A DNA stretch of 64,000 nt from Methanobacteriota archaeon (GCA_963720465.1 OY970393.1:1792001-1856000); one strand, 5' to 3'; numbered from the stretch's first letter, positions 14,457-45,100 are shown. The notes: generated from the letters alone by a model not told the origin. A program made the numbers and translations.

Positions 14457-14475
14457 AGTATGAATGCTTCATACT
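14457..14475. promoter_or_regulatory. Perfect inverted repeat AGTATGAA-N3-TTCATACT upstream of the RHH gene; candidate operator
   Basis: 8-bp arms read directly, about 50 bp upstream of the RHH start. Confidence 0.5.
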
Positions 14476-14497
14476 TGAGCATGTCGCCCGCTAACGG

Positions 14498-15014
14498 GAT
14501 TTTCCACTCAACAGTTTCCACCGTTTCCGGTGCAAGGCGCGCGAGCATCAGCTGAAGAAAAATCAACTTGCGCGCTTCGATGAAAAAAATAATGAATTTT
14601 CGAGCTCTTTCGCGGAACAGGCAGTAGTGGTAGCCGATCTTTTTCAAACGGTCTCTTTGAAGCTCTCTGTTCGCATAGCTCGCTACGTGGCTTGATAGCG
14701 GCAGTCGCAATGCAGCTAGAAACTATTTATAGCAGGTTCAACACTTTTTTTGAAATTCAGTTCTAGTGATAGTTCGAAGCTCCTTAATTTAACCGTGGAG
14801 ACGGGCAGAACGCCGTCCATTTGCAAAAATAGCTATCTTGCCACAACAAAATACCTTTATTTCGAGTCCAGATTTTAAAAAGAAGGATAAAATAGAAACG
14901 AAATCGTTAAATACGATCAGTGCACGGTTTAATGTGTCGATGCAGCAGGAGCCGGGCTTCGCCGCAAGGCCCTACCTCAAAACGCGCTCTTTTCGCTTGG
15001 CGGGCCCGCGCTCC
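14498..15014. repeat. Copy 1 of a ~0.5 kb non-coding repeat with fixed-spacing conserved blocks
   Basis: Seven blocks match 41542-42060 at offset 27044-27046; 14848-14881 vs 41892-41925 is 33/34 identical. Confidence 0.85.
14948..15014 (+). ncRNA. Candidate structured element (GGAGC...CCTRCCTCRAA...GCTCC), copy 1
   Basis: 67 nt; terminal stem, conserved core motif, inner hairpin GCG-CTCTTTT-CGC; TTAAATA box about 35 bp upstream; T-rich downstream. Confidence 0.55.
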
Positions 15015-15226
15015 ATGTTGGTCGCCACATTTCTTCAGCAATATTCTTTGTTGTGTGAGGTGTTTCTTTCGATTTTTCACCGCTTCTCCAGGCATATTTA
15101 AGTCCGGTGGAACGCGATGTTTGTGCGCCGCGTCGCTTGTCGAACCTCCTTTATTCAGGGATCGAAGTCACGGACTAAAGAGCGACCGAGCTGCAAGAGC
15201 TTTCTAAGGACGGTGCGCACTAGGCT

Positions 15227-39395: not shown

Positions 39396-39908
39396 GTGCC
39401 GAGACGAATATGGAAACAATGGGCCCAAGATCAGTTTCTGGGCGTCGCGCAATTTGGGCCCCTGAGGATGGAGCGCGGCAACATCAAGTTTTTTGTACTC
39501 ATGACACTACGCGACCAACCGCTCCACGGATATGGCATTATTAAGGCTATTGAGGATGTGAGCGGCCACGCCCCAAGCGCAGGCGTGATCTATCCAACTT
39601 TGCAGATGCTTGAGGACCAAGGTTGCGTCGCTATGAACGAGGAGGAGAACAAGAAGATCTACGTCATAACCGATGCTGGTAGACGCTTCCTGGACGAGCA
39701 TCGCGACACGGTTGAGCGGCTGAGTACGCGCGCCGCTCAGCCAAGATGGAGCTGGCTTCCCGGAGTCGGGCGCCGTATCGGGGAAATTTCCCGCACGATC
39801 TTTTCCAACTATTCGTACCTTGATGACGAGAAGATACAGCAGATCGAGCACATTCTTGATGAGGCAAGAAGACAGATCGGCGAAGTGATTTTTGCGAGAA
39901 AGCGTTAA
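39396..39908 (+). CDS. PadR family transcriptional regulator, divergent from the ADH gene
   Basis: HGYGII...PSAGVIYPTLQMLED.G...Y.ITDAG. Confidence 0.9.
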   Translation: MPRRIWKQWAQDQFLGVAQFGPLRMERGNIKFFVLMTLRDQPLHGYGIIKAIEDVSGHAPSAGVIYPTLQMLEDQGCVAMNEEENKKIYVITDAGRRFLDEHRDTVERLSTRAAQPRWSWLPGVGRRIGEISRTIFSNYSYLDDEKIQQIEHILDEARRQIGEVIFARKR

Positions 39909-41329: not shown

Positions 41330-41541
41330 TGGCATATCTTTTTTGGAAATGCGTGCTTGAAAAAGAGCGATATGACGTCTTGGCCCGAAAGCGTGCTTCA
41401 CAGCGGATGAAGCGAAATTACACGTTGCCGGCAACCCTCAAGCGACTATCAAAGAGTTTTTTTTGCGCTGCCGGAATCGCCAGCCCGAGTCTTACTAAGG
41501 TAAGGGCAAGTCATACCCACGGCACACCACAGGTTAGCCTG

Positions 41542-42060
41542 GTTTTTCCACTCAATAGTTGCAGCTGTTTCCGGTGCAATTTGTATTCGCCAGCGTACTC
41601 GAGCAATCTATCTGCGGACGCTGATGACGCAAATAACAGATTCCTCTCGCTGTCAATTTGGCTGATAGTGAGCATGGCGCTTTTTGATTAGGCGGAGCCC
41701 ATAGTGTGCTTCTTTTCGTGACACTTGTGGTACTACCAGAAAAATACAGTAGCAGCGAAGCTAGAAACTACTTAAAGAGGCGCATAAGCGTGCGACAAAT
41801 ATCGGTTCCAATGGAGCATCGCGAGCTACAAATTCTTTAGCAGATACGCGTATGGCGGTGCTCGTTGCGAAAAAGAAGGTCTTGCTTACATAAAATACCT
41901 TCATTTCGAGTCCAGATTTTAAAAAAAGGCGCAAAATGCGAGCGAAAACGTTAAATACGATCGTGTAGAGCTTAATTATGCCGTGATTAATAGGAGCCGG
42001 ACCCGCGATCTGGCCTGCCTCGAAAACCGTCTTCTCTTACGGCTACCGGGCCCGTGCTCC
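41542..42060. repeat. Copy 2 of the ~0.5 kb fixed-spacing non-coding repeat
   Basis: Blocks at 41548, 41567, 41761, 41892-41925, 41949, 41993 and 42048 match copy 1. Confidence 0.85.
41993..42060 (+). ncRNA. Candidate structured element, copy 2
   Basis: 68 nt; GGAGC/GCTCC stem, CCTGCCTCGAAA core, inner hairpin CCGT-CTTCTCTT-ACGG. Confidence 0.55.
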
Positions 42061-42437
42061 ATTCTCGGTTTTGTTCTGTAGTTTGTTAGGATTTTTTCCG
42101 GTGCTGGCAGTACAGCGAGTGTCCCTTTCTGGCTTTAGGTTCTTGCAGATATAACGTCGACCCCTCATACCTCACCGCTTATGTTTATTTTTTTGATGCT
42201 GTCCACGTGAGGCGCGGTTGCCGTGGCCTTGATGGAACTTGCGGGTAAAAAATCGGACTCAAGCACTGCTTCTTCAGACTTCGTCTTCCAATCACGATAA
42301 ATATTGACGCTGGCTCAATCTCTTTCGTTGATTTCGGCGAAAAATAGCCTTAAGGCGACAACAAAGCGCCGCAAATCTAAATCAATAAGTAGCGTTACTC
42401 ATTAATTGTTAACGATAGACAAAAAGGAGGTGACAAA

Positions 42438-42743
42438 ATGGGAGACGTGAAAACGATCACAAGGATTCCGGTTGGGCCAGTCGCGTTGATGGGTGCTGTT
42501 ATTAGCGCCATTCTGGGACTCATTGAAGGAATAATTTATGCGATCGGCCTCGCAGCTTTTGCTGCGTCGTTGCCTAGCTCGCTTTCTAGCTATGTTAGCT
42601 TTGGAGCGGCTGGCGCACTAGGTGTCATTATCGGCAGCATTATCGGCGGCTTCATTGGCGGGTACATCATAACAGCAATTATAGCACTGATTTACAACGC
42701 GCTGGCGCCTAGAATTGGTGGCGTTAAGCTTGAACTTGAGTAA
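42438..42743 (+). CDS. Small two-TM membrane protein (DUF3566-like)
   Basis: Strong SD GGAGGTG; ALIYNALAPRIGGVKLE C-terminus. Confidence 0.8.
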   Translation: MGDVKTITRIPVGPVALMGAVISAILGLIEGIIYAIGLAAFAASLPSSLSSYVSFGAAGALGVIIGSIIGGFIGGYIITAIIALIYNALAPRIGGVKLELE

Positions 42744-42992
42744 TGGGGAAGCATATTCAATCGCCTAAGTCGCAGAGTTCTAACGGTGAAACGCAAGCAC
42801 AAAGCGTTGGCCGTTACTTTTTTTGTTTTTTATAAAAACTAGCATGCTTGTCGAGCATAAGAGTGAGGCCCAACTCCGAATGCAGGGCGAGGCGAAAGCG
42901 CATCAACGTGCGATGGCTAAGATCCCTTAGACAGGCTCAAAGTGAATCCTGCGTTAGCTGAGCAAAGAAGCAACGCACGAACTGGACTATAC

Positions 42993-43034
42993 GTATGAAA
43001 GAAAAAAAGAATTGTATGAAAGAAAAAAAGAATT
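42993..43034 (+). repeat. Perfect 21-bp tandem duplication containing the start codon
   Basis: GTATGAAAGAAAAAAAGAATT twice. Confidence 0.9.
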
Positions 43035-43585
43035 TCGAAAATGCGGCAAGCACCGTGTTTGCCCCGCAACTCGTCGGCCTAGTGACGACCATTGATCGTG
43101 CCAACCGGCCAAACGTGGCGACCTTCGCTTGGATAATGAGCACCTCGCACGATCCGGAGCTCGTAGCAGTAAGTGTTTCAAGAAAACGCTACACGTATGA
43201 GTGCTTAACCGATGAATTCGTCATTAATTTGCCGACGAGGGAGTTGCTCGAACAGGTGTGGGCCGTTGGGACCCGGTCAGGAAGGAACGTGGACAAGTTT
43301 CAGGCGACGGAGTTGACGCCCATACCCGCTGTCGCGGTCAAACCGCCTAGGATTGCCGAGTGCCCGACCCACGTAGAATGTCGCATCGTTGACAGAGTAG
43401 ACACGGGAGACCACACCATCTTTATCGGCGAAGTCGTGGCAAAATCAGGCGACCCTGATGCAATGAAGGACGGTGCTCTCAACGAGCGCATTGAGCCTCT
43501 GTTCCATCTTGGGGGGAAGAAATTCCTGTGCGGTCGCGAACGACTTGACGTCGACAGGCTTCGCGGGGGCAAACGCAGCGTTTGA
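42995..43585 (+). CDS. Flavin reductase-like (flavoredoxin) protein
   Basis: PNVAT, EFVINLP, GTRSGR.VDKF, PPRIAEC, GDHTIFIGEV. Confidence 0.9.
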   Translation: MKEKKNCMKEKKNFENAASTVFAPQLVGLVTTIDRANRPNVATFAWIMSTSHDPELVAVSVSRKRYTYECLTDEFVINLPTRELLEQVWAVGTRSGRNVDKFQATELTPIPAVAVKPPRIAECPTHVECRIVDRVDTGDHTIFIGEVVAKSGDPDAMKDGALNERIEPLFHLGGKKFLCGRERLDVDRLRGGKRSV

Positions 43586-43786
43586 AATCCCGCGCAATCT
43601 ACTTCTGGCAGAGGAGTTTGGGCGTTGATCGCTTGAGCAGAGTGCAGAGCGTCTCGTTTTAGGTGGCAACATTCGTTCCTAATGAATACCTGGCTCAAAA
43701 AAATTGTCAGTTCAAGTTCAAAATCAGAAAAAGGTTTCAAAATTAAGGAAGCCGTTTGTATGTCCCAAACGGCGCTGCTTGATACT

Positions 43787-43853
43787 GGAGCTTAAGGCCC
43801 GCCGCTCGCCCTACCTCGAATCGTCTCTTATTACGCGCGGCGGACCCCGCTCC
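43787..43853 (+). ncRNA. Candidate structured element, copy 3
   Basis: 67 nt; GGAGC/GCTCC, CCGCCGC/GCGGCGG stem, CCTACCTCGAA core, inner hairpin CGT-CTCTTATT-ACG. Confidence 0.5.
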
Positions 43854-44089
43854 GTGCTGACCGCAGCAGCTTTGCGGTTTGCGATAATCTGCTGTTTACA
43901 GTGTAGGCGAGACCGCTTTAAGCCCCTTACGGTTTTGTCGCGCGGGCGCTGCGCATCGGCTGTTCTTTGTTAAGTTGGGCTTTGAAGCAGTCATCGCCGA
44001 GCTGTGACACGAACGCGGTGTCACGCGTTTACACGCAATTCTTGCCTCACGCGGCCTTATAGCGTTTTTGTGCGCAGGCTAGATCAGAG

Positions 44090-45100
44090 GTGAACGTTAT
44101 AGCGACAAATGTAGCAAGCACACAAACGGGCGGACTGCTGTACGCGGGTGTCGCCTCGGCGCTGCGGATAAACAGGCGAATTGAAAACGACGAGATTCCA
44201 CTCTTTATGCAACGGTGCGTCATCGACGCAATGCGCTGGGAAGTCGGCGGAACGCAGTACGAACAGTGGCGCGCTGAAAACGGCAACGGGAAAGATCCAG
44301 CCGTTAAATGGCGTGACGAGGTGGTTACGCCCTACCTCCAGCAGCGATTTGATGGGCTAGAACTGCGAGGCGATGGCCATCTTTGTGGTATCCGACACGA
44401 TAACGATGAGGAGATTGACGAGCGTTTCTACGACACGCAACAGCTTCGAGGCTCCATGCTCGCAAAGTGCCCGGGACAACGATGGCTGTTTGCTCTCGGG
44501 TGCTGCCGAAGATACAGACCGCAGTAGAGTTCGCGTCTTTTTCGAAGGTCGCGAGAGGCTGACGGTGTTCCGCGTGCACCAGCAAGGGCGTGTGCTACTG
44601 CGTCCATTTACGCGTCCGCGTACTCGATGTCCGGAAAGGCGTCTTCGAATTCGAGCCTCCTGTCCGTAAGCTTGTTGTACACGATTACCGCCTCTTGTGG
44701 GGTTAGTGGCGTCAGTTCCGGGTCGCGCTCATCGTCGTCGCCAAAGAACGGCACTGTTTTTTCGTATTTGAAATAGCACCCGCTAGGCGTCCGGAACAGG
44801 TCGACGTTCTTGAGGCCAGTTTTCAGCGTTTCAATGCAGAACTGGTGCTCGTTCCGCGCAAGAAGGATACCTGTATCGGTGTCGCACACCACGCCGCCAA
44901 ACGCTTGTTTCATAGACATACCGTTTGGATGACCTCACAGTTAAACTTTGTATGTGCGCGCGGAAAGTAAAATAGCCTCACGCGAAAAAAGCGATGGCTG
45001 CGCGAACACGACGAACGATCTGAAGTGCAACAAGTGCGCAAAGCGCGTCGCGGATGCGGTTAACGGCGCGCTTCTGCCGCGACATAGCAGCTTCAACTAA
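44090..45100 (+). pseudogene. Paralogue of the 56228..56395 Cys microprotein, split by an ~0.83 kb insert
   Basis: N-part MNVIATNVAST..G.LY at 44090 and C-part GCANTTNDLKCNKCAKRVADAVN at about 44996-45100 both match the intact copy. Confidence 0.75.
44608..44919 (-). CDS. Small hypothetical protein resembling phage/plasmid DT.T...LYRT..G.YF proteins
   Basis: DTDTGILLA, LFRTPSGCYF, LTPLTPQEA; SD GAGGT; lies inside the insert. Confidence 0.65.
   Translation of the reverse strand: MSMKQAFGGVVCDTDTGILLARNEHQFCIETLKTGLKNVDLFRTPSGCYFKYEKTVPFFGDDDERDPELTPLTPQEAVIVYNKLTDRRLEFEDAFPDIEYADA

Follow-up and report, generated by a model that had tools for sequence, protein, structure and literature searches.

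A previously undescribed, genus-restricted family of small structured RNA genes in a Methanobacteriota archaeon

Three motifs on the + strand of a 64,000-nucleotide stretch of DNA from a Methanobacteriota archaeon (the window) are genes of a previously undescribed, genus-restricted family of small structured RNAs. The motifs are 67-68 nt long, were verified at 14948-15014 (copy 1), 41993-42060 (copy 2) and 43787-43853 (copy 3), and each forms a long imperfect hairpin that combines a conserved GGAGC/GCUCC helix (5 bp) with a covarying, GC-rich stem (8-14 bp) and an apical region. It is highly likely that the family is real, acts at the RNA level and is read from the + strand. Taken as a whole, the motifs are best explained as new small structured RNA genes acting as sibling small RNAs (sRNAs), an explanation that is put forward at slightly less than an even chance. 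Little is known of regulatory or structural RNAs in uncultured archaea, and the relatives of this host are abundant MAG lineages in bogs, fens and peat, with the sequence being present in peat RNA libraries. The closest named records for one neighbouring protein are bog, fen and peat MAGs (75-95% identity) that are labelled Halobacteriota archaeon or Methanobacteriota archaeon, and the host is presumably a member of the uncultured lineage that carries the GTDB name "Bog-38".

Identity and extent of the family

The preliminary description of the motif, made from the sequence of the window, reported a GGAGC...GCTCC closing stem and a second GC-rich stem that differs in sequence between copies and nevertheless pairs, and both can be read in all three copies. 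The reported core, CCT(A/G)CCTC(A/G)AA, is likewise present, preceded by 23, 21 and 23 nt in copies 1, 2 and 3, respectively. By itself this 11-mer is unremarkable (four matches with at most one mismatch in the window, against 3.5 expected), and single-sequence folding, with z values from -1.4 to -1.9 on the + strand and from -0.9 to -4.4 on the - strand, is not decisive either; the case for the family thus rests on the comparison between sequences. A composite pattern of GGAGC, a gap, CCTRCCTCRAA, a second gap and GCTCC has three forward and no reverse matches in the single-contig genome of 2,313,764 bases, and its backwards control has none.

Covariance-model searches of genomes and of Rfam, the route proposed in the preliminary description, gave six loci in the host genome, relatives within the genus and no Rfam family. 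A model built from the three window copies (R1) scores these at E values of ~1e-12 to 1e-13 (71.7, 77.6 and 76.4 bits for copies 1, 2 and 3) and adds three further copies, so that the 2.31 Mb genome contains six paralogous loci. The three copies first noticed are all real; three further paralogs had been overlooked. The paralogs fall into classes labelled A to F, with copy 1 of the window belonging to class B, copy 2 to class A and copy 3 to class C.

The family follows the boundary of the genus. R1 finds it in 15 of 17 other genomes of the genus, in 0 of 6 genomes of the sister genus and in 0 of 37 other genomes of the phylum, and a second model built from 65 sequences (R2) finds it in 16 of the 17 and in 0 of the 6. 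Applied to an even sample of the phylum, R2 finds the family in 13/13 genomes of the genus, in 0/5 of the sister genus and in 0/132 others, where absence is to be read as "not found in those searched", since many of these genomes are incomplete (59-91%). Each of the two closed genomes of the genus harbors six loci. The loci are syntenic across species, and the class A and class C loci are kept as a pair ~1.8 kb apart in six genomes (G002, G009, G010, G011, G012 and G014). An exact-pattern scan of metagenome contigs gave 85 matched stretches that represent 80 loci; 76 of these are members of class C or D, and the remaining four are, by reading, chance matches. No family member was found in viral contigs scanned with three exact patterns, nor in plasmid and phage collections. 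In the sister genus the promoter box of the family (see below) gives seven one-mismatch matches, about as many as its backwards control, and no comparable hairpin follows any of them.

The family also has no match among known RNAs. Rfam 15 gives 0 matches at gathering score across the whole 64 kb window, and with the threshold relaxed to E <=10 around the three copies, only AMV_RNA1_SL, TCL6_1 and RefA1 appear, at 13.6-16.9 bits against cut-offs of 60-94 and none of them on the motif. ARAGORN reports 0 tRNA or tmRNA genes in the window; that the program works on this organism is indicated by the 37 tRNAs that it finds elsewhere in the genome. A literature search with the letters of the motif returned only an unrelated chance match in a circular-RNA preprint, a search for "Bog-38" archaea returned no RNA paper among the matches listed, and no paper joining sibling sRNAs, C-rich sequences and Shine-Dalgarno was found. 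A genus-specific family that has a promoter module, six paralogs and an invariant loop is ready for Rfam-style curation and is usable as an expression marker in peat metatranscriptomes.

Fold, covariation and the apical block

The fold is supported by two alignments made in different ways. The first, a model-guided alignment of the core (65 matches, 57 distinct sequences, 16 core pairs), has 91.4% of cells paired and nine pairs that change on both sides (36 cells), values that lean towards structure as the alignment was fitted to the model. None of 500 column shuffles attains them, and sliding the partners by 1-3 columns leaves 26.5-49.3% paired. The second, made with plain MAFFT from 24 distinct class D sequences and their flanks (27 pairs), has 93.1% of cells paired against 31.6-52.2% when slid. 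Here, the variation in 11 pairs is confined to one side and leaves a standard pair in every case; two-sided changes are absent, rendering the shuffle control (500/500) uninformative. The small inner hairpin that was included in the preliminary description is the weakest part of the fold, with three pairs, 92% of cells paired and only one pair changing on both sides. Classes A, B and C retain it and classes D and F do not; its place in class D is taken by an extension of the main stem, with an apical loop of ~28 nt.

Outside the core, the flanks form a terminal helix that was absent in the preliminary description. In class D, GUCGAUGC just 5' of the core pairs with GUGUUGAC just 3' of it, resulting in an 8-bp helix that is 100% paired and in which three one-sided changes keep pairing. 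In minimum free energy folds of extended sequences, class B has a longer helix of this kind, and class E an equivalent one built from other sequence (AUUAGC/GCUAAU plus UGCA/UGCA). In copy 1, the predicted 5' leader (14936..14947), GUCGAUGC(AGCA), represents the 5' strand of this helix and pairs with the 3' flank, where the 3' strand (AUGUUGGUCGCCACAU) and a T-tract occupy 15015..15036. The duplex with its own flank reaches -12.5 kcal/mol on the + strand, compared with -7.0 on the other. The helix is weak in classes A and C; the predicted leader of copy 2 (GCCGUGAUUAAUA, 41980..41992) pairs weakly with the 3' flank UCUCGG (-4.5 kcal/mol on average). The predicted 5' end in classes B, D, E and F would pair with the 3' flank as a terminal helix. 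When own and foreign flanks were compared, the result was not cleanly diagonal, cross-class pairings being not clearly worse, and the class F copy of the host genome lacks the 3' strand, so that the terminal helix is likely real and not proven. All nine other class F loci carry the 3' terminal-helix strand GUAUUGGC, which this copy (L006, G000:C1:7235-7295, - strand) appears to have lost through a small deletion; either the helix is dispensable or the copy is decaying.

Two further elements interrupt the stem. The bulge beside GGAGC measures 1-6 nt on the 5' side and 0-2 nt on the 3' side, and since its size and side differ between classes there is no fixed bulge motif. Two non-Watson-Crick positions, an A.C beside the bulge and a C.A in mid-stem, are conserved in 21/24 and 22/24 class D sequences. 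Such positions occur in class C and D loci (e.g., the 43799/43848 region of the window; columns 15-83 and 25-74 of alignment A7) and a few sequences have A-U, U-A or C-G instead. The positions may serve recognition, form protonated wobbles or be sites where a base is modified.

The apical block, GGCCCUACCUCGAAcCGUCUyUU, is near-invariant across the six classes while the stems differ. Variants of it are CUGCCUC in class A and GGGCUACCUCGAACC in class F. The block lies at 14968-14993 in copy 1 (GGCCCTACCTCAAAACGCGCTCTTTT), at 42012-42038 in copy 2 and at 43808-43832 in copy 3. The preliminary description gave a conserved core of 11 nt; the conserved single-stranded block is ~22 nt long. This C/U-rich apical stretch is probably the functional end of the molecule. 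Orthologs, which in class B are 65-67 nt long, differ by 1-nt indels, indicating that the region is not protein-coding.

Promoter, strand and transcript

In copies 1 and 2, the BRE/TATA-like box CGAAA(T/A)CGTTAAATA had been noted upstream of the motif, and it is indeed present, ending 34-35 nt before it (CGAAATCGTTAAATA, 14899..14913 in copy 1; CGAAAACGTTAAATA, 41943..41957 in copy 2). Its position is conserved between species, with a TTAAATA box preceded by CGAAA ending 35 nt before the core in 13/13 class A loci and the TATA end lying 34 nt before the core in 12/14 loci of class B, 33 nt in 8/10 of class D and 32-33 nt in 10/10 of class F. Class E has a related box further upstream, and class C, including copy 3, has no canonical TTAAATA box. 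Genome-wide, the promoter box (at most one mismatch) occurs only at three family loci, and an upstream element, CCTTYATTTCGAGTCCAGATTT (at most three mismatches), only at four of the six family loci. This conserved element lies at 14854..14886 in copy 1 (CCTTTATTTCGAGTCCAGATTTTAAAAAGAAGG) and at 41898..41930 in copy 2. In copy 3, a hairpin CCGTTTG..CAAACGG (43752-43772) and the leader occupy 43752..43786.

Conservation also falls off on the 3' side. Between -120 and +80, it stands at 0.89-0.94 across species, and beyond this, after the T-tract, at only 0.62-0.67; for copy 1, it is 0.89-0.93 over -100..-1 and 0.67 beyond +80. The T-rich tracts reported 3' of copies 1 and 2 are found there, that of copy 2 within the 3' flank at 42061..42073 (AUUCUCGGUUUUG). 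In 11/13 class A loci, a stretch of at least four T residues opens 7-8 nt past the core, and in 11/14 class B loci one of at least three opens 15 nt past it. The 3' flank of copy 3 (43854..43884) consists of a hairpin (CCGCAGCAGCTTTGCGG, 43861-43877) followed by TTTGCGA, an arrangement that is conserved in class C. Transcription in archaea typically starts ~22 nt from the end of the TATA box, and this spacing places the putative start on the first G of the terminal helix, at G14936 in copy 1 (22 nt after the TATA) and at G41980 in copy 2. Archaeal RNA polymerase would start from the BRE/TATA box (CGAAAnCGTTAAATA) on the + strand, and the transcript would begin ~11-13 nt before the core and end at the T-tracts 7-30 nt after it. 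Judged from spacing and conservation, the RNA would therefore be ~93-120 nt long.

The + strand is very likely the functional one. In class D, 13/27 pairs are G.U on the + strand in at least one sequence, including three fixed G.U pairs in the terminal helix, and only 2/27 are A.C or C.A; since a G.U on the + strand would be an A.C mismatch on the - strand, this pattern favors the +. With flanks included, the + strand folds better in 46/65 loci, and it gives the flank duplexes of classes B, D and F an advantage of 5-6 kcal/mol. Against the + strand, the 16 core pairs over all classes comprise 44 A.C-type and 36 G.U cells, the former mostly at the two fixed positions in classes C and D, and classes C and E fold better on the - strand. 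That the functional RNA is instead a transcript of the - strand is distinctly improbable. Such a transcript would account for the class C and E cores folding 2-10 kcal/mol better there and would turn the conserved A.C and C.A positions into G.U, alternating with A-U and G-C (L018, L028, L106, L110). However, that side has no conserved promoter-like box, the sequence past the T-tract is poorly conserved, and the 13 class D pairs, the three fixed ones of the terminal helix among them, would become mismatches.

RNA libraries contain parts of this region. Small shares of 41700-44100 are present in 18 RNA-library runs from 13 studies, mostly peat metatranscriptomes, and four runs (X1-X4) were placed on this interval, all as assembled contigs, in which uncovered parts are uninformative. 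Copy 3 is covered in three of these four runs (X1, X2 and X4) and copy 2 in one (X4), where a single contig (record 13) extends over 41989-42104. X2 holds a 58-nt contig identical to 43802-43859 at a depth of 117.8 and a second identical contig at 43830-43890. A contig of X4 meets adapter right after 43884, past the 3' hairpin of copy 3, indicating that the cDNA insert ended there. Assembled contigs reveal neither strand nor ends nor levels, and some DNA may have been carried over; the cover is thus supporting evidence for expression and not proof of it. Upstream of copy 2, an X3 contig over 41713-41821 overlaps a promoter-like island (see below) and has adapter on both sides, consistent with a short cDNA insert, which hints that this island is itself transcribed.

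Some contigs (records 2, 5 and 14) span the upstream flavin-reductase gene into the core of copy 3, suggesting that copy 3 may arise by read-through or 3'-UTR processing. This raises the question of whether the motifs are cis-acting or processed elements, that is, a leader, a 3'-UTR-derived RNA or a terminator of neighbouring genes. The absence of a canonical TATA box in class C is consistent with this idea, as is the copy 2 contig (record 13), which runs at least 44 nt past the core and through T-runs. Nevertheless, five of the six classes have their own conserved promoter, conservation collapses right after the T-tract, and two-gene contigs do not demonstrate a single transcript. Furthermore, the neighbours, including the downstream ORFs, are unrelated between loci (geranylgeranyl reductase, GNAT, PadR, MFS, flavin reductase, radical SAM and others), no conserved neighbour gene is common to all six, and the gene that comes after copy 1 converges on it from the opposite strand. 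These surroundings make a general cis-regulatory role unlikely, and a cis-acting or processed origin of the family is improbable.

Two kinds of paralogous sequence accompany some of the loci. The loci of classes A, D and E each have a PadR-family paralog within 2.5 kb (at 39396-39908 of the window, at 4583-5099 of L163 and at 5155-5682 of L164, all on the + strand), and parts of these paralogs are 52-77% identical. The whole genome holds only eight PadR matches, and the PadR gene beside class D has an in-frame TAA stop. These paralogs could be regulators of the RNA promoters or could merely have been co-duplicated with the RNA genes. In addition, at loci A, B and D the paralogous unit takes in ~280-450 nt of sequence upstream of the RNA (41513-41897 and 14468-14850 of the window; 3521-3900 of L163). 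It holds conserved islands that are absent elsewhere in the genome, one of them TTTTCCACTCAA..TTTCCGGTGCAA at about -450 and a second, promoter-like CAGTCGCAATGMAGCTAGAAACTATTTAWAG, at about -235. A second promoter, some regulatory region or a further RNA may lie here.

The preliminary description had left two candidates side by side, a new structured RNA and a single-stranded DNA hairpin. The first of these agrees with a family that lies outside Rfam and has covarying stems and a BRE/TATA promoter on the + strand. An element acting at the DNA level, whether a REP/MITE-like palindrome, a single-stranded DNA priming hairpin or a protein site devoid of any RNA function, is very improbable. The motif is a GC-rich inverted repeat in intergenic DNA, and the upstream paralogous units of ~280-450 nt at loci A, B and D show segmental duplication, both of which speak for such an element. 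However, there are only six copies, syntenic across species, and none in viral contigs, plasmids or phages. The changes of G.U type are strand-asymmetric, promoter and T-tracts are conserved, and RNA-library contigs extend over two of the copies; the single-stranded DNA alternative is not supported. A REP/MITE-like repeat was rejected on similar grounds, as six syntenic copies are found in place of many dispersed and variable ones, with no occurrence in the viral, plasmid and phage collections.

Possible function and comparison with known RNAs

The six loci, with their conserved box and upstream element and a block that is invariant across classes, have one feature of sibling sRNAs, that of several separately promoted paralogs with a common single-stranded block. 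The paralogs may be co-regulated, trans-acting siblings that pair by the apical block, a tentative proposal that is favored over the others. They share an upstream element, the stem would be merely a stable scaffold, and the exposed pyrimidine-rich block would pair in trans with purine-rich sites in mRNAs, such as Shine-Dalgarno-like sequences, in the manner of the anti-RBS sRNAs of Methanosarcina. Pairing sites in mRNA start regions would then be complementary to CUACCUCGAA. The motif ACCUC is common to the loop and to the 3' tail of 16S rRNA (GGAUCACCUCCU), and Shine-Dalgarno-like GGAGG/GAGGU sequences peak at -12 to -10 of predicted (guessed) starts in this genome. Anti-Shine-Dalgarno pairing of CCUACCUC, an idea already raised in the preliminary description, is a speculation.

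Searches for targets gave values at chance level. Antisense matches of the apical regions in the host genome reach 13-14 nt at best (E 0.16-0.8), which is expected by chance. When the 23-nt block was paired with 4916 crude start windows, defined by guessed gene starts, 148 were bound at <=-20 kcal/mol, compared with 75-169 in eight shuffles. Pairing of the block to 16S rRNA, 23S rRNA and the 37 tRNAs is also within the shuffle range. An invariant block of 22 nt moreover exceeds the usual seed length, which speaks against pairing, and its length together with the conserved A.C and C.A positions fits recognition by a protein at least as well as base pairing.

The RNAs might instead bind a protein, as an RNP scaffold or sponge, with the block, the bulge and the A.C/C.A positions as the recognition surface and with the six paralogs setting the dose. 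Parallels for paralogs that set dose are RNAs of the CsrB/RsmZ and Y RNA types. This reading is somewhat unlikely by itself, yet nearly as likely as that of pairing siblings. It would explain why a long single-stranded block is near-invariant over six paralogs while the stems drift, why non-Watson-Crick positions are conserved in class D, and why no base-pairing target rises above chance. The ends pair in a terminal helix that resembles those of Y or VA RNAs, and U-rich stretches (CUCUUUU, UCUUUUAUU) could bind Sm-like proteins. However, the genome encodes no TROVE/Ro domain, no tandem G.A K-turn lies beside the bulge, and no single neighbour gene accompanies all six loci. It is rather unlikely that the family is the RNA subunit of a lineage-specific RNP or a global modulator of translation, in which the block and the A.C/C.A positions are read by a protein or mimic the 16S anti-Shine-Dalgarno tail. 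Were this true, it would be a class of stable RNA without a counterpart in other archaea, expressed from six genes on a dedicated promoter module that nearby PadR-type regulators might control. If the loop binds either Shine-Dalgarno sequences or a protein, the family would be one of few multi-copy sRNA systems known in archaea.

Established kinds of small RNA differ from the family in identifiable ways. H/ACA and C/D guide RNAs are also small GC-rich archaeal hairpin RNAs with promoters of their own. H/ACA RNA was rejected, as there is no ACA 3' of the hairpin; the flanks are AUG, AUU and GUG in the window and AUG, ACG, GCG, AUU, GUG, GUA, AUA and GCG over the 65 loci. Neither a K-turn or K-loop (tandem G.A is absent) nor a two-sided guide pocket is found, unpaired sequence being almost exclusively on the 5' side or at the apex, and rRNA and tRNA complementarity is within the shuffle range. 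C/D RNAs carry RUGAUGA (box C) close to the 5' end and CUGA (box D) close to the 3' end, and the two boxes form a K-turn. In the family, the 5' flank UCGAUGC is 3/7 positions off box C and occurs only in classes B, C, D and F, and the 3' flanks, GUGUUGAC or AUGUUGGU, are without CUGA, so that this kind was rejected as well. A bulge-helix-bulge was rejected too, since the bulge has no fixed size or side.

Y RNA and adenoviral VA RNA resemble the family in their length of ~100 nt, terminal helix, conserved bulge, pyrimidine-rich loop and several paralogs. However, the loop of the new family is apical and not internal, and there is no Rfam match to Y RNA. A Y RNA of a Ro RNP was rejected, with PF05731 giving 0 matches in the host genome (91% complete) and positive controls in Deinococcus and Bacteroides. 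Closer in organization are the bacterial sibling sRNAs Qrr1-5 and LhrC1-5, which, like the new family, comprise several paralogs with a common single-stranded block and a conserved promoter architecture. They differ from it in domain of life, promoter type and fold, and most classes of the new family are without an Hfq-type module or a Rho-independent terminator hairpin.

Among archaeal RNAs, the comparison is with sRNA154 and sRNA41 of Methanosarcina mazei, which are described as anti-RBS sRNAs in a review (PMC5867862). The new family has no sequence or Rfam relation to them and consists of six paralogs, each one long hairpin whose ends pair and whose invariant block measures 22 nt. The M. 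mazei RNAs are like the new family in being archaeal, intergenic, independently transcribed and structured, with exposed pyrimidine-rich stretches that could mask an RBS (PMC5867862), and the lineage of the new family also uses Shine-Dalgarno-like sequences.
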